Of a stretch of DNA of 64,000 bases, positions 2,147 through 49,363 are shown piece after piece. Below the pieces are notes generated by a model. It was not told the DNA's origin, made no database searches, and saw only the letters and a list, made by a program, of their open reading frames with translations. The position numbers were made by a program, and so were the translations under genes. This DNA comes from a virus (taxonomy: Duplodnaviria; Heunggongvirae; Uroviricota; Caudoviricetes): IMG/VR virus record IMGVR_UViG_2721755676_000001; one strand, 5' to 3'. How positions within the stretch are numbered: position 1 is the stretch's first letter; every line of letters starts with the position of its first letter.

Positions 2147-3402
2147 TGGCAATCCCGTCCTCGCTCAGTCTTGTGCAACTGCATTCTGGACAGATGAAAG
2201 TCTTCCAGTCTCCGCATCGATTTAAAGTTGTTTGTGCTGGTCGACGCTGGGGAAAATCCCGGTTGTCGATCTCCACTATTATTCGTGCGGCGGCAAAGGA
2301 AAAAAAGCAAAGGGTCTGGTATGTCGCTCCTACTTACCAGATGGCTCGCCAGATTTTGTGGGACGATCTACAGGAAGTTCTGCCTCGTAAGTGGGTTAGG
2401 AAAAAGAACGACACCACGATGACAATCGTGTTGAAGAACGGTTCGGAGATCGCCCTCAAAGGTGCTGATAAGCCTGACACTCTGCGCGGCGTAGCGTTGC
2501 ATTTTGTAGTGCTTGATGAATTTCAGGATATGAAGGCTGACACCTGGTACAAGGTGTTACGACCTACTCTTTCATCGACACGCGGCGGTGCACTGATCAT
2601 TGGTACGCCAAAAGGCTTCTCGGAATTTCACAAACTGTGGACTATAGGCCAGAACGTAGAGCTGCAAAGAAAGGGACAGTGGAAGAGCTGGCAGTTTGTA
2701 ACTGCCGATTCTCCGTTTGTGCCTACGGCGGAAATTGAAGCTGCTAAGAACGATATGGACCCGAAATCGTTCGCTCAGGAGTACCTGGCGAGCTTTGAGA
2801 ACATGTCCGGGCGCGTTTACTACCCGTTCGATCGTAACGTGCATGTAAAACTGCTTCAGTTCAACCCTCGGTTGCCTATATGGGTAGGGCAGGACTTCAA
2901 CATTGACCCGATGTCTTCCGTAATTTTGCAACCTCAGCCAAATGGTGAGCTATGGGCAATTGATGAATTGGTGCTCTTTTCCTCTAACACGGCAGAAGTT
3001 TGTGATGAGCTTGAGAGACGCTTCTGGCGCTGGAAATCACAGGTAACGGTATTTCCAGATCCGGCAGGTGCTTATCGCCAACATGCTCGTGGGGAGTCTG
3101 ACGTAGACATATTCAAAGAGAAGGGATTCTTACGTGTCGATTATTCGAAAAAGCACCCGCCAATTGCGGATCGTGTTAATGCTGTTAACCGAATGCTGAT
3201 GTCCGCATCTGGAGATATCCGGCTGTATATCGATCCGAAGTGCAAGCATTTGATTGATTCACTGGAAAAAGTCATCTACAAGCCTGGAACACGAGATATG
3301 GATAAGACAGGTGGCATTGAGCATAGTGCAGACGCATTGGGCTATCCAGTACATCGTAGGTATCCAGTCAAAAACCGTGTTATTCTTGGTGGTTCTCGAT
3401 AG
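2146..3402 (+). CDS. terminase large subunit
   Basis: Walker A-like VVCAGRRWGKS and Walker B-like VVLDEF near N-terminus, nuclease-like C-terminal half; position before portal. Confidence 0.85.
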   Translation: MAIPSSLSLVQLHSGQMKVFQSPHRFKVVCAGRRWGKSRLSISTIIRAAAKEKKQRVWYVAPTYQMARQILWDDLQEVLPRKWVRKKNDTTMTIVLKNGSEIALKGADKPDTLRGVALHFVVLDEFQDMKADTWYKVLRPTLSSTRGGALIIGTPKGFSEFHKLWTIGQNVELQRKGQWKSWQFVTADSPFVPTAEIEAAKNDMDPKSFAQEYLASFENMSGRVYYPFDRNVHVKLLQFNPRLPIWVGQDFNIDPMSSVILQPQPNGELWAIDELVLFSSNTAEVCDELERRFWRWKSQVTVFPDPAGAYRQHARGESDVDIFKEKGFLRVDYSKKHPPIADRVNAVNRMLMSASGDIRLYIDPKCKHLIDSLEKVIYKPGTRDMDKTGGIEHSADALGYPVHRRYPVKNRVILGGSR

Positions 3403-34356: not shown

Positions 34357-34409
34357 CCTGCTTCTGTATATAAATAATAAGTAACTTATTAAATATATAC
34401 GGAAGCAGG
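34357..34409. repeat. 53-bp near-palindromic element, copy 2 (identical to 1343-1397 except one TA unit)
   Basis: Read directly; lies in divergent intergenic region before replication module. Confidence 0.8.
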
Positions 34410-34492
34410 TCTTTTAAAAGACACCACCAGAACAACTCCCTTCCGTTTCCACTTCCAAAAACTGCCACCAGTCGCTATCATCCGCTCATTGT

Positions 34493-44198: not shown

Positions 44199-44335
44199 TT
44201 AAAGACCACTTCACCCTTGCGTTCAGCTTCAGCTTTAGCAGTCATGAATCGTTTGATCATTTCGACTTTGCTAGCATGGATAGTTTTAAAATCAATCTTC
44301 CCTTTGTTTTGGGTAGTGTTGTGTTCGTATCGCAT
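44199..44335 (-). CDS. hypothetical small protein (45 aa; not in ORF track)
   Basis: Minus-strand ORF ATG 44335 to TAA 44199, overlapping the 3' end of the upstream minus-strand gene by 44 nt. Confidence 0.25.
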
Positions 44336-44846
44336 AGGAAGCTCCGTCATTTAAATAAGTTAGGCCACGCTCTTGTGTAAATCTCTTCACATATCTCTTG
44401 TATGTGGCCATCAGTTCTTCGCGTTCTGCCGCAAAGAATAAAATCTGTATGCCTTCATTGTCGGCAACTTTGAGCATTAAGTCAACTAAAGTACCGTAAA
44501 GGTATTGAAGTTCACCTAAAGTAAGATTAAAAGACCCTTCGGGTTTGGCAAATACGTTAATTGGCTCTTCCGCTCCAAGAGCAGCATTCTGGAGCTGTTC
44601 TTGCTGCCTGTCAAGTTGAATCATGTCCACAAAACTAACGACAGATACACACAACCCATAAACATCAGCACCTAACATATTATGCATAGTTTCTGCGGCA
44701 ACAGGATCTAAAGAAGGAGGGCAAAAGACTAAACGGTATCTAGCCTTACGAGCTTCATTGCCAGAGAAAACAAAGTCTATATCTAAATATGACAGATCAC
44801 CCGGCAATGAAGCCAAACCAGGTGTAACCAACTTATGCAAGTGCAT
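44292..44846 (-). CDS. hypothetical protein
   Basis: 184-aa minus-strand ORF divergent from the recombinase gene. Confidence 0.5.
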   Translation of the reverse strand: MHLHKLVTPGLASLPGDLSYLDIDFVFSGNEARKARYRLVFCPPSLDPVAAETMHNMLGADVYGLCVSVVSFVDMIQLDRQQEQLQNAALGAEEPINVFAKPEGSFNLTLGELQYLYGTLVDLMLKVADNEGIQILFFAAEREELMATYKRYVKRFTQERGLTYLNDGASYAIRTQHYPKQRED

Positions 44847-44985
44847 CTGTCTCGAATCCCTCTTTATTAGTATAAGTTGTCTTATTGTACCCTACCAAAC
44901 GTTTATATGCATTGTTATGTATTATTTTGATTTTCAATATTACCTCCTAGAACGAAGGGTAGATTTCAAAAAACGCATCCTTAAT

Positions 44986-45012
44986 GATTCCATACCTACT
45001 ATGTATGGAATC
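44986..45012. repeat. perfect 10-bp inverted repeat GATTCCATAC-N7-GTATGGAATC in recombinase upstream region
   Basis: Read directly. Confidence 0.7.
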
Positions 45013-45113
45013 ATTAGTGAAAATGAGTTACTTTTACTCTTGATCCTATAAGAATCTATGCCTAATATACTGTTTACTTATACAGTGAATCGGCGTAACT
45101 CGGTGATTGTCAT

Positions 45114-46217
45114 ATGAAAAATAGCTTTGACAGAGCACGCGCTGCGGAGAACACCTCAAAAGAGGCGATAGAGTATCTCGAAAGAGCATCTCAAATGCAG
45201 GCCGTTATGATCTCCCAGGTCAGCAATGACATGAGATTCTCGGACGCATTCATGTTATTCACTCGCTTATCTCTGCTGATAACCAGACGTCGGCCAGAGA
45301 TCGCTGTTCATTGTATTTTGATACATGTTTTGCCGCACATTGCCGATGTAAAAGTAAGTGACATTAATAGGTTCATGGTGAACCAACTGGTCAACCCACT
45401 AATACTGGATGGCAAAATTGTTATGGGCCGCCGCGTTTTCTCTCTGATGAAGCAGTTCCTTAGCTGGTGCGCCTTCCAGGGGATGATAGACGTGTCACCG
45501 TTAAACGATATGTCACTAAACAAAGTTGCCGGTGGCGCAAAGCCCACACCTCGCGAGCGGAAGCTGACCGACGCAGAGGTATGGGTGTTCTGGAATATAT
45601 GGGACTACTTCAATGTGTGCGCTGGTACAAAATGGGCGGCCAGGCTGTGTCTTGTATCCGCAAGACGACCTGACGAAGTACTGCGGGCTAAAAAAAGTGA
45701 GTTCAATCTTAAGCGTGGGGTTTGGAATCAAGGCAAGAGGAACAAATCTGCCCGTGAGCATTCTCTGCCTTTAAGCTCATTAATGCGCACTTGTATTGAA
45801 GAGTTGTTCGAATATGGTAAAGACAGCCAGTGGCTCGTGCCTTCGAATAAAAAAATCGGGAAAGACCTTCCTATGTCTAAAGTGGCAATAGCCCAGGCAT
45901 TACGTCGTATTCTGGAACGACCAGAACTGATGGAGCTTGAGCCATTTACACCCCGAGACTTGCGCCGTACTGCGCGTAGTTACTTCCCAGCATTAGGCAT
46001 AAGCCAGGAGGTATCACGCAAAATCATGAACCACAGTCTTGAGGGGATAGATCGAGTCTACGACCGGCACGATTATATGGACGAGATGCGAGACGCCTTA
46101 GAAAGTTTCTCGACGTACATCGCATCAATCGTAGAGCAACCGGATTTAGACGAAATTGACCACAAATTCAAGGGAGATCGTCTATCAACAGAGCTTATTC
46201 GTGTAAATTTTTCATAG
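45114..46217 (+). CDS. tyrosine recombinase / integrase family protein
   Basis: C-terminal catalytic-region pattern TPRDLRRTARS...IMNHSLEGIDRVYDRHDY (R, H, Y positions); upstream Arg ARRPDEV; GGTGA RBS. Confidence 0.65.
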   Translation: MKNSFDRARAAENTSKEAIEYLERASQMQAVMISQVSNDMRFSDAFMLFTRLSLLITRRRPEIAVHCILIHVLPHIADVKVSDINRFMVNQLVNPLILDGKIVMGRRVFSLMKQFLSWCAFQGMIDVSPLNDMSLNKVAGGAKPTPRERKLTDAEVWVFWNIWDYFNVCAGTKWAARLCLVSARRPDEVLRAKKSEFNLKRGVWNQGKRNKSAREHSLPLSSLMRTCIEELFEYGKDSQWLVPSNKKIGKDLPMSKVAIAQALRRILERPELMELEPFTPRDLRRTARSYFPALGISQEVSRKIMNHSLEGIDRVYDRHDYMDEMRDALESFSTYIASIVEQPDLDEIDHKFKGDRLSTELIRVNFS

Positions 46218-46598
46218 AGACTTTATGGCCTCAACAACCTTTTGTGATGCGCCTTTCTCTTTACCGAATCGCTCGTTATATGCAGCAAGAACCTGTTTTT
46301 CGTCCTCGTTAAGAGGAGCGGTGCCTTCTTTGTATAAAAATGCTGCGAGTTCAGGTTGGCGTTCTTCCAGCACCATCATCATAAGACGACTTGGCTCAAT
46401 ACCCAGCGCCAGCGCCAACGGACGAACCTTATCGATAGGCAAAGGAATTTTGCCACTTTTAATTAAAGAAAGGTTGTTGGCATTTTTATAACCAATAAGT
46501 CTGGCTATTTGGGCCTGACTCATAGGTGAGGATTCAATCAGCCCTGCGATAAAAGCAGCATAGCGACTTTCTATAAATTCAATCTTGTTGTCAGACAT
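46212..46598 (-). CDS. XRE-family helix-turn-helix transcriptional regulator (putative repressor)
   Basis: HTH-like MSQAQIARLIGYKNANNLSLIKSGK; convergent with recombinase gene; AAAGG RBS. Confidence 0.7.
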   Translation of the reverse strand: MSDNKIEFIESRYAAFIAGLIESSPMSQAQIARLIGYKNANNLSLIKSGKIPLPIDKVRPLALALGIEPSRLMMMVLEERQPELAAFLYKEGTAPLNEDEKQVLAAYNERFGKEKGASQKVVEAIKSL

Positions 46599-46626
46599 TG
46601 TTACAACCTTTGCGCGTTCAATTCTC

Positions 46627-46640
46627 TCTGGTAAGTGCTT
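46627..46640. promoter_or_regulatory. perfect 14-bp palindrome GGTAAGTGCTTACC (candidate operator) upstream of the XRE regulator gene
   Basis: Read directly; 29 nt upstream of the regulator start codon; shares GTAAGT half-site with the genome-wide motif. Confidence 0.5.
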
Positions 46641-46848
46641 ACCGATATTACATCAAAGGTTAGGGTTGTAAAGCTATTATCATTTTTTCGATAGGCACTT
46701 AAAAGACCGGTTAAAGGCCATTGCACGGAGAAAAATTAGCCCAAAACAGGTAAGAAAATTAACTTGCATATGATATGAATGTATTCAGTATTGATATAAA
46801 TTTTAGTAGTATTCCTTACCATAGTATAAGTTAGAATGGATTGATTGA

Positions 46849-47061
46849 ATGAACACCACTATTTCCAGCCTAATCGCTCTTGAGATCGGACACGTACAGA
46901 AATTAGCTGATGAGTGTGTAGCTGACATCCTCACCGATCTACCGAATGAGCAGATTCAGGTTGGTGTGAATGACACAACTGGCTTTATATTCGAACTTAA
47001 CAACAAACGCTTCACGCTTCTCAATATCGGCTCCGGGTCTTTAGCCGTCAGAATCTGTTAA
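46849..47061 (+). CDS. hypothetical small protein divergent from the repressor (Cro-like position)
   Basis: 70-aa ORF preceded by TATAAGTTAG; followed by stem-loop at 47074-47106. Confidence 0.35.
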   Translation: MNTTISSLIALEIGHVQKLADECVADILTDLPNEQIQVGVNDTTGFIFELNNKRFTLLNIGSGSLAVRIC

Positions 47062-47159
47062 CCCCTCTTCTCCCTGCGCGAATGGCTTAGTTCCCTGTTC
47101 GCGCAGTGCTACATTAAACACACTAGTAAATAATTTGTTTTCATAACAAAGGATTAGCC

Positions 47160-49268
47160 ATGTCTAAAAAACGTTCCATCAAAGAGGTTCAGGACTTCCG
47201 TGACAGTGTAAAACGAGTAGTCGCTCTCCTTTCAGGTAAAAACATCCCTGTTGCAGAACGAGGGGACGACGCTTATGTACGCTATAACGATGATGGAGAG
47301 CCAATTCTCGTAAACATCCCATCAATCCCGGATAACGCAACACCGGCATTGATGAATGCTGTGCGCGGATTTCTCGATCATGAGGTTGCTCACATTTTGT
47401 TTACCGATATTCGTGTGTCCAACAAAATGAGAGAAAAAGGACGCGTTCCTTCCTGGTCGCTATGGAATGCCTTAGAAGACGTGTTCATCGAGCGAAAAAT
47501 GGGTCAGGTCTTTAACGGAACAAGACGTAATCTGATGGCAACTCAGCGCCTTATAATCGAAAAAGTCTTTAAACCAAAGGCTTCAGAGGCTATTGCTTAT
47601 TGTGGCAAAGATCAGCGCGCGCTTTTTCTAAACTTCTTTCTCTGTCCGGTTGTAAGAGCCTGGGATGGCCAAGCACCGTTCGTAGATTTCATGGATGAAC
47701 ATTGGCCTGTCATTGAGAAACCAATTTCATTATTAAAAGAACATGGTATCGATGTGGCCGTGCGTAACATGTCTTGCACCGAGGATTGTGTAAAGGTGGC
47801 TGCGACCATAGCTAAGATCCTCAAAGACACTGAAAGTGAAAGCAAAGGTAAGGAGTCAGCTCCGGGAAAAACTTCCGATCCTTCAGACGCTGACCAGACG
47901 GATGCCTCTGGAGAAAACAATGAAGACAACGAAGATCATGAGACTCCCTCAGTGTTAGATAATCACAAATCTATCAAATCAGAATCACATAGTAAGTACA
48001 AACATGATAATAACGACAGTGATGATTCAGATAATTCTGAATCATCAGAAACAATATTCGATGATACAGAAAATGATAAAGAGGTATCAGATTCTGATGC
48101 TTCTGATAACGCGGCGTCAGAATCATTAACCGCTGACCACGAAAAAAGAAAAACGACAGAAGACGGCTCTTCAGATATCCCAACTCCGTCAAAAATGAGT
48201 CTGGAAGAGGCTTTAGAGGAGCTGGATAGCATAGAAGATGAAGTCGGAGGCATGACAGAAGATGCTCTATCCGAAACGATTAAAAGCGAGTTAACAGAAA
48301 GCTCGAAAAGCGAATACAGGCCATACAATCGCTCATACGACTTCATCGGCTCGATTGATCAGGCAGAAGCCCATATCAAACGGCTTATTAAAACATTCTC
48401 CGATATTGATTTGGGAGGATATCCAATCAGCCGCTATCGCATCGTTCCTGAAGGCAACCAGCTCTTCGACAAATATATTGAAAAGCATCTTTCGTCAGGT
48501 GTTTCGTCGACGCTGGCAAAAGACCTGGAGCGAGCAATAGCAAGCAGAAACAGAGTTCAGTTTATACCGGGCCAGCGTCGGGGGCGCATTCATGGTTCTA
48601 GTATCTACAGATTAGCAATGAATGATGCTCGCGTGTTTCGTAAAAAAGAAGAATCTAAAGCCGTTAACGCCTGTGTTCAACAAGTGATTGATTTATCAGG
48701 TTCAATGAGTGGTATAACGATTAAACTGGCTCTTGCAAGTGCATATACCATCGCCGATGCCCTTGATCGAATAAATGTTCCCAACATTATCACCGGCTTC
48801 ACTACATTTGGTAGTCATATGGCGGCAGGAGAACTTAAGGCTGTCAAGTATGAGTTCTCTCGCTTTGAATCTTTAATGCTACCTATCATCAAAAATTGGA
48901 ATGAAAAGGTAAATTCTCGCGAAGTTCGCTCACGTATGGGGTGCGTAGGCTACACATTCCCACTTCTTAATAACGTGGATGGTGAAAGCATAGCCAGCCT
49001 TGCATCGTTATTTTCCGGTCGCATGGAGGACAGGAAGATCATGCTTGTTCTGAGTGATGGCGCGCCGTGGGCTGTTGGGAGAGGTTTTGACGCTCATTTG
49101 CGTTCAGTTGCGAAGCAAATTGAAACGCAGACTGATATTGATTTGATGGCAATTGGCATCATGACTGACGCACCGGAGAAATTTTACTCAAATCATGCCC
49201 TGGTAACGAGCGTTGATAGTCTTGGTTCATCTGTAGTTACTGAACTATCTCGTATCATTTTAAAGTGA
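47160..49268 (+). CDS. CobT-like protein with C-terminal von Willebrand A domain
   Basis: MIDAS motif VIDLSGSMSG in C-terminal domain; long acidic Asp/Ser/Glu-rich linker; paired with downstream AAA+ ATPase. Confidence 0.7.
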   Translation: MSKKRSIKEVQDFRDSVKRVVALLSGKNIPVAERGDDAYVRYNDDGEPILVNIPSIPDNATPALMNAVRGFLDHEVAHILFTDIRVSNKMREKGRVPSWSLWNALEDVFIERKMGQVFNGTRRNLMATQRLIIEKVFKPKASEAIAYCGKDQRALFLNFFLCPVVRAWDGQAPFVDFMDEHWPVIEKPISLLKEHGIDVAVRNMSCTEDCVKVAATIAKILKDTESESKGKESAPGKTSDPSDADQTDASGENNEDNEDHETPSVLDNHKSIKSESHSKYKHDNNDSDDSDNSESSETIFDDTENDKEVSDSDASDNAASESLTADHEKRKTTEDGSSDIPTPSKMSLEEALEELDSIEDEVGGMTEDALSETIKSELTESSKSEYRPYNRSYDFIGSIDQAEAHIKRLIKTFSDIDLGGYPISRYRIVPEGNQLFDKYIEKHLSSGVSSTLAKDLERAIASRNRVQFIPGQRRGRIHGSSIYRLAMNDARVFRKKEESKAVNACVQQVIDLSGSMSGITIKLALASAYTIADALDRINVPNIITGFTTFGSHMAAGELKAVKYEFSRFESLMLPIIKNWNEKVNSREVRSRMGCVGYTFPLLNNVDGESIASLASLFSGRMEDRKIMLVLSDGAPWAVGRGFDAHLRSVAKQIETQTDIDLMAIGIMTDAPEKFYSNHALVTSVDSLGSSVVTELSRIILK

Positions 49269-49363
49269 ACAAAACAGCCTTTACGATAAGTAACCACTTA
49301 CGATATATAATGATATATTTATATAAGAAGTTGAACGCTCATTAGAGAACAAAGGAAAAACGC

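Follow-up and report, generated by a model that had tools for sequence, protein, structure and literature searches.

Which DNA site in front of a phage-plasmid's repressor-like gene governs its expression, which protein occupies that site, and could the same protein act elsewhere on the genome? These questions are raised by a 250-bp region in a 64,000-nucleotide stretch of Caudoviricetes DNA (hereafter the window), in which an initial annotation had seen an immunity operator set. Phage-plasmids of the SSU5/pHCM2/pMT1/pKpn type are common in Escherichia, Klebsiella, Salmonella, Enterobacter and Yersinia, some of them with resistance genes, and our search of the accessible literature turned up no account of how they choose between lysis and lysogeny. 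The locus offers three testable handles: a conserved putative operator on the repressor promoter, a genome-wide palindrome that may define the regulator's regulon, and a LexA box through which ciprofloxacin might induce these elements although no repressor is cleaved.

The locus and its regulator

Sequence identity at the locus is 99.4% with "Escherichia phage CMS-2020a" and 97.5% with phage Cyrano (pLF82), and positions 46212-47061 match two E. coli plasmids at 100%. A related regulator gene was found in about 785 PLSDB plasmids from Klebsiella, Escherichia, Enterobacter, Yersinia (pMT1), Salmonella (pHCM2) and Citrobacter. These identities and relatives identify the window, by sequence, as an Escherichia phage-plasmid of the SSU5/pHCM2/pMT1 type (SSU5 supergroup). 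The genes around the spacer follow the order integrase (+), HTH regulator (-), 250-bp spacer, 70-aa ORF (+), CobT-like, CobS-like AAA ATPase and DnaE. The divergent region reported earlier, between a minus-strand HTH regulator and a small plus-strand ORF, is present as described:

45114..46217, plus strand: tyrosine recombinase ("integrase") gene, converging on the regulator gene and overlapping its 3' end by 6 bp
46212..46598, minus strand: 128-aa HTH regulator with a predicted XRE fold, orthologue of CYRAN_45 "putative repressor"
46599-46848: divergent spacer of 250 bp between the regulator and the 70-aa ORF
46849..47061, plus strand: 70-aa ORF, phrog_2627 "unknown", kept across the family and deleted in phage SSU5

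The regulator had been called XRE-type from the sequence alone. Its Pfam HTH matches fell below the curated thresholds required for an HTH_3-type assignment (HTH_19, 18.9 bits for a cut-off of 30.2; HTH_37, 16.4 for a cut-off of 27), and a sequence search against solved structures returned nothing significant; the match to phrog_8 "transcriptional regulator" reached 6.6e-12. Foldseek searches with its AlphaFold model (pLDDT 80) retrieved C.AhdI, C.BclI, 434, P22 c2 and HigA, with target TM values of 0.7-0.8 and an rmsd of 1.5-3.4 over 60-77 columns, at E-values of only 1e-2 to 1e-1. The matched region comprises the first 60-75 residues and has the five-helix HTH arrangement. According to the predicted structure, the N-terminal part of the regulator is an XRE/Cro-CI type HTH fold, and the earlier designation stands on the fold match to C.AhdI, 434 and P22 c2. 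No Peptidase_S24 (self-cleavage) domain was found by Pfam in the 128-aa protein. The segment GYKNxNNLSLIKSGK, which corresponds to the recognition helix, is nearly invariant among regulator homologues, and homologues of at least 55% identity lie almost exclusively on contigs of about 105-116 kb.

CYRAN_45, the near-identical Cyrano orthologue, bears the annotation "putative repressor". In the LF82 lysogen its expression exceeds the prophage background 10-fold, and ciprofloxacin induces Cyrano 39-fold (PMC9928086). Two other Cyrano proteins were considered as master repressor and set aside. CYRAN_114 (L018, 780-1301), the second regulator annotated on Cyrano's minority strand ("transcriptional regulator"), is a FljA-like repressor of phase-1 flagellin (Pfam, 1e-80), possibly a host-modulating cargo gene. 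CYRAN_98 is an S24-only protein preceded by a second LexA box of Cyrano, at 89277.

The inverted repeat on the regulator promoter

The repeat at 46630-46643 consists of two perfect 6-bp arms around a TG centre that is not self-complementary. It had been described as a perfect 14-bp palindrome lying 29 nt upstream of the regulator start codon. Because its reverse complement is GGTAAGCACTTACC, it is instead an imperfect 14-mer with an asymmetric centre, and the distance to the ATG is 31 nt (46599-46629). A true perfect 14-mer, GGTAAGTACTTACC, occupies the same place in the Klebsiella lineage, and the exact sequence GTAAGNNCTTAC occurs in the window only once, as this repeat. Taken alone, a 6+2+6 repeat is within chance for an AT-rich spacer: inverted repeats with 6-bp arms appeared in 65% of dinucleotide shuffles of the divergent region when spacers of 0-12 nt were allowed, and in 37% with spacers of 0-4 nt. 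Chance was ruled out by conservation, not by statistics; the repeat is a genuine site because it is conserved, and the sequence by itself proves nothing.

We aligned the spacers of 11 lineages, including window/Cyrano, PhiR41_1, pHCM2, pMT1, Enterobacter, Buttiauxella, a second E. coli type, Klebsiella and Kluyvera. Two conserved blocks emerged, the second at 46775-46813 and the first composed of the regulator promoter and the repeat:

46630..46643, no strand assigned: inverted repeat GGTAAG-TG-CTTACC, putative operator; 12 of 14 columns invariant in the 11 lineages
46645..46650, minus strand: -10 hexamer TAATAT of the regulator promoter, from the promoter scan; 7 of 7 columns (46644-46650) invariant
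46667..46672, minus strand: -35 hexamer TTTACA of the same promoter, with a 16-nt spacer, from the promoter scan; 6 of 6 columns invariant
46637..46639, minus strand: predicted regulator transcription start, placed at the usual 7-nt distance after the -10
46607..46610, minus strand: Shine-Dalgarno-like AAGG, 8 nt before the regulator ATG, read from the sequence

The invariance of these elements contrasts with the mid-spacer, where 4 of 74 columns are invariant. Among the lineages the repeat varies in two ways only: those of the pHCM2-type have T for its final C, and Klebsiella has TA for TG at its centre. The -35, the -10 and the repeat are invariant or nearly so even though the regulators of the 11 lineages are just 57-70% identical. 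Furthermore, the 71-nt block alone retrieved 782 plasmids, all at 80% identity or more; with the regulator gene, spacer and small ORF taken together, 592 of 785 plasmids fell in the 60-80% identity band. A scan of species-representative genomes yielded four loci, every one with the same putative operator. Judging from these comparisons, the repeat is under very strong purifying selection, part of which could be explained by constraint on the promoter or the initially transcribed region.

TTTACA-16-TAATAT, on the minus strand, was the sole promoter found by the scan, and the repeat follows directly after its -10. Given the predicted start, the repeat would extend over the regulator's own sigma-70 promoter from about -5 to about +9, the arrangement of a dyad site abutting the -10 of a negatively autoregulated repressor promoter. 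Since the repeat lies there, the best reading is negative autoregulation by the regulator: a dimer bound to this one site, directly after the -10 and over the predicted start, would block RNA polymerase and cap repressor synthesis. Autoregulation is favoured because the promoter and repeat are invariant though the regulators diverge and the mid-spacer is unconserved, because the arms persist around a variable centre (TG or TA), and by the near-invariant recognition-helix segment, the XRE fold and the expression of the Cyrano orthologue in the lysogen. The full proposal, that the repeat is the single autoregulatory operator of an XRE-fold repressor whose specificity is common to a dispersed palindrome family, seems to us about equally likely to be right or wrong.

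The immunity operator set proposed earlier would be lambda-like, with three sites controlling both divergent promoters, and it drew on further GTAAG/CTTAC half-sites in the spacer. Such pentamers do occur four times in the 250 bp, versus 0.52 expected (P ~0.002). The two extra ones and the second conserved block are located as follows:

46750..46754, plus strand: extra half-site GTAAG; not conserved outside the window/Cyrano lineage
46775..46813, plus strand: second conserved block, from the spacer alignments; mean column identity 0.86; holds no copy of the repeat
46792-46800, plus strand: extended -10-like TGATATAAA, within the second conserved block
46804-46812, plus strand: invariant TAGTAGTAT, within the second conserved block
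46815..46819, plus strand: extra half-site CTTAC; not conserved outside the window/Cyrano lineage

The half-sites at 46750 and 46815 do exist, but they are unpaired; their columns differ even in the closest other Escherichia lineage, and beyond Escherichia both are missing. The second block is likely, from its motifs, the promoter of the small ORF/cobT-cobS-dnaE operon, and the search for a copy of the repeat in this block, some 160 bp away, found none. The operator set is not supported, because one conserved site exists, on the regulator's own promoter, where a lambda-type switch has several operators common to two divergent promoters. Against such a switch also stand the lack of an S24 domain in the regulator and the 70-aa ORF, which has no HTH match in Pfam or PHROGs and no Pfam match at all, so that no Cro-like partner is evident; a homologue search with this ORF returned close homologues alone. 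We regard lambda-like control of both promoters as extremely improbable.

The dispersed palindrome family

The initial annotation had also tied a genome-wide TAAGTA motif to the regulator. This hexamer occurs 46 times in the window (plus strand 30, minus strand 16), where 30 would be expected, but it is absent from 46599-46848. Because the literal TAAGTA is missing from the spacer, the link to the genome-wide motif runs through GGTAAGT, and in this form the sequence-level connection survives.

The motif family itself is real. On the plus strand of Cyrano, 32 of 50 RRTAAGT sites lie in noncoding DNA, which makes up 13% of the genome, as do 26 of 30 ATARGTA sites. TAAGTAA is the top noncoding 7-mer in Cyrano and joint top in pHCM2, with ATAAGTA close behind in both, and GGTAAGNNCTTACC with up to 2 mismatches has 7 and 8 noncoding sites in the two genomes versus about 0.5 expected. 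The partner half-site of ATARGTA peaks at a 6-nt gap, and the unified 20-bp palindrome, ATARGTA-N6-TACYTAT, has 19-24 noncoding copies per genome versus about 1 expected. Intergenic copies in the window lie at 3399, 6822, 23809, 29334, 34494, 37928, 41287, 43774, 54869 and 58387 (all 20-bp sites), with a further one at 49287. Many copies begin inside or just after the upstream stop codon and end beside the next ribosome-binding site; gaTAGgTAAgTAa at such palindrome starts provides stops in three frames. The half-sites resemble the NarL heptamer, TACYYMT, in a different arrangement. Two AT-rich segments of about 60 nt, 87% identical (1355-1414 and 34367-34426), were also observed in the window; each holds a long palindrome, CTGCTTCTGTATATA...TATATACGGAAGCAG, with centre TAAGTAACTTA, and one of the segments precedes the small terminase gene.

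At the regulator promoter, the repeat matches the 14-bp core perfectly but lacks the outer ATA/TAT of the dispersed copies. Since the repeat is the core of a palindrome with about 20 intergenic copies, the regulator probably controls a regulon scattered over the genome and not a local switch in three parts. The missing ATA/TAT flanks speak against this reading. Not every palindrome is a promoter: we found no constant -35/-10 arrangement near the copies, and for some the following ATG is less than 15 nt away.

Alternatively, the repeat might be a hairpin punctuation element, acting like the other intergenic copies in RNA or single-stranded DNA with no dedicated repressor, and its conservation might derive from the overlapping promoter. 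Most dispersed copies can be folded as stem-loops with tetraloops, many abut the upstream stop codon, those close to an ATG are not all promoters, and the central TG/CA flips between orthologous sites. However, the hairpin at 46630-46643 is weak (-4.5 kcal/mol, z -1.3), the regulator mRNA would begin inside the repeat, and an Rfam search of 44800-47300 with E up to 1 gave no match. Strand-specific folding was rejected, with no asymmetry among 44 dispersed copies: the plus strand folds better at 25 and the minus strand at 19 (p 0.23), and G.T versus A.C mismatches, counted by hand, were 9 versus 4, a difference that is not significant. Among orthologous sites, the outer bases of the stem are fixed and the six in the centre vary with no preservation of complementarity, as would be expected of a duplex DNA site for a dimeric protein. 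A hairpin element is, in our view, very unlikely.

Which protein binds the family was approached through distant relatives. In phage SSU5, integrase, regulator and small ORF are all missing: at L022, 42525-42761, the block from the tRNA cluster to cobT is lost, including also the Gp49-family and glutaredoxin genes, which fits a dispensable lysogeny module. That SSU5 is without exactly the integrase-regulator-small ORF module favours autoregulation. SSU5 nevertheless retains palindromes, three of them perfect cores, and the persistence of perfect copies without the regulator counts against it. The SSU5 flanks are nearly identical to those of pHCM2, indicating that the deletion is recent, so this phage does not decide the binder.

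A pCAV-like Klebsiella plasmid carries a syntenic regulator of 47% identity, also convergent with its integrase. The palindrome of this plasmid takes the form ATAAGTAA-N4-TTACTTAT, and immediately before the regulator there are two motif-like copies. In an Acinetobacter phage-plasmid (CP116441, L028-L030), the syntenic regulator is 38% identical, weaker motif copies occur in its spacer, and a very clean 22-24-bp palindrome, TATTAGTAAGCGCTTACTAATA, has 27 noncoding copies. The retention of a syntenic regulator with motif-like copies upstream in both groups favours autoregulation. The base before GTAAG at the regulator promoter (G, A, A) matches the consensus of each group, which is suggestive of a link between regulator and motif in a comparison of three points only. 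In CP116441, moreover, the gene for a sigma-70 family factor is located between those for the CobS-like protein and DnaE. In pHCM2 (L019-L021, 401-2209 in reverse-complement coordinates), repA is flanked by eight noncoding copies of (c)TACAGTGG, probably iterons.

Alternatively, another phage-plasmid protein, ParB/KorB-like or a lytic-phase regulator, may bind the repeat and the dispersed palindromes, and would then shut off the repressor promoter or silence transcription at the locus. The SSU5, pCAV and Acinetobacter groups all have two conserved ParB_N proteins, as does phage SSU5 itself, and a palindrome lies just upstream of parB in three groups; both observations weigh against autoregulation, and the number of intergenic palindromes per genome and the sites retained by SSU5 likewise suit such a protein. 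On the other hand, the fixed place of the repeat on the regulator's own start is the classic autoregulatory arrangement, and the regulator is the sole HTH protein kept in syntenic position across all groups. We consider a binder other than the regulator, the main rival to autoregulation, somewhat unlikely.

Possible SOS input and comparison with known systems

On the integrase side of the locus, two elements precede the gene:

45068..45087, plus strand: LexA-box-like TACTGTTTACTTATACAGTG, 26 nt before the integrase ATG; sole CTGT-N8-ACAG in the window
45040-45068, plus strand: weak promoter-like TTGATC-17-TAATAT abutting the LexA-box-like site; 8/12 match, below the scan threshold

The CTGT-N8-ACAG core (45070-45085) lies 28 nt before the integrase ATG and is single in the 64 kb. 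The site has the sequence of a LexA (SOS) box and is intact in 10 of 12 lineages. Through such a box, the SOS response might bring about induction with no need to cleave the repressor. We looked for a terminator separating the integrase from the repressor promoter, and the sole terminator-like hairpin found (46438-46454) was dismissed as not conserved. With convergent, overlapping genes and no conserved hairpin between them, SOS-driven integrase transcription could run antisense through the regulator gene and its promoter, a step that we infer from the layout.

Combined with the palindromes, this route suggests a more ambitious possibility, in which the regulator would be a global silencer acting via some 20 palindromes and self-limited at the core copy on its own promoter. 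The dispersed sites would serve as roadblocks or operators in intergenic gaps, and the copy at the regulator's own start would be weaker. Induction would proceed without repressor cleavage, through the LexA-controlled integrase promoter instead, whose transcript would run antisense through the repressor gene and promoter and into the cobT-cobS-dnaE operon. We judge this combined scheme unlikely.

Other features were observed near the integrase. A lox-like site, AATGATTCCATAC-N7-GTATGGAATCATT (44983-45015), lies upstream of the tyrosine recombinase gene; its 13-bp arms hardly differ among 12 lineages, with a change at the outermost position in one of them, and its 7-bp spacer is variable. From its sequence, it is a candidate target for dimer resolution or circularisation. 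Positions 44292-44846 (minus strand) encode a 184-aa protein, phrog_28788, with function unassigned and a promoter-like site at 44898-44869; its Cyrano orthologue, CYRAN_43, is expressed 723-fold above the prophage background in the lysogen (PMC9928086).

The single autoregulatory operator finds its closest likeness in 434, P22 c2 and lambda cI (OR3 at PRM), which share with this locus an XRE-fold HTH protein and a 14-bp dyad that has conserved outer bases and a variable centre and overlaps the repressor's own promoter. Unlike in those systems, there is one site here rather than a tripartite operator common to two back-to-back promoters, and the locus has neither an S24 cleavage domain nor an evident Cro-like partner. 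Restriction-modification C proteins, which are small, bind as dimers to palindromic boxes at the promoters of their own genes, and C.AhdI and C.BclI are among the best structural matches to the regulator's HTH core. The regulator differs from them by an additional C-terminal helical half of about 60 aa, the sequence similarity is not significant, and no restriction-modification genes are present here.

The dispersed sites recall P1 C1 operators and the "stoperators" of mycobacteriophage L5 gp71, reportedly described by Brown et al. in 1997, in that many intergenic motif copies are accompanied by one at a repressor-linked promoter. As with stoperators, many copies lie in short intergenic gaps; unlike the L5 sites, which are asymmetric and in one orientation, those found here are palindromic, with an orientation bias of half-sites in Cyrano (26 versus 10) and none in pHCM2 (16 versus 17). 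In RK2, KorB/ParB acts with palindromic OB sites dispersed on the plasmid. A palindrome with a dozen or more dispersed copies is common to both cases, and the ParB_N proteins encoded here are candidate binders.

The putative SOS input without a cleavable repressor resembles convergent-promoter interference in coliphages 186 and P2 and the LexA-controlled antirepressor of N15 (cited in PMC11652158); the likeness lies in a LexA box on a promoter converging on the repressor gene. A difference is that about 1.55 kb, including the entire integrase gene, separates the two promoters of this locus, and interference over this distance would be conjectural. Compared with the single operator, the ideas of dispersed sites and of LexA-controlled convergence appear to be the more novel readings of this locus.
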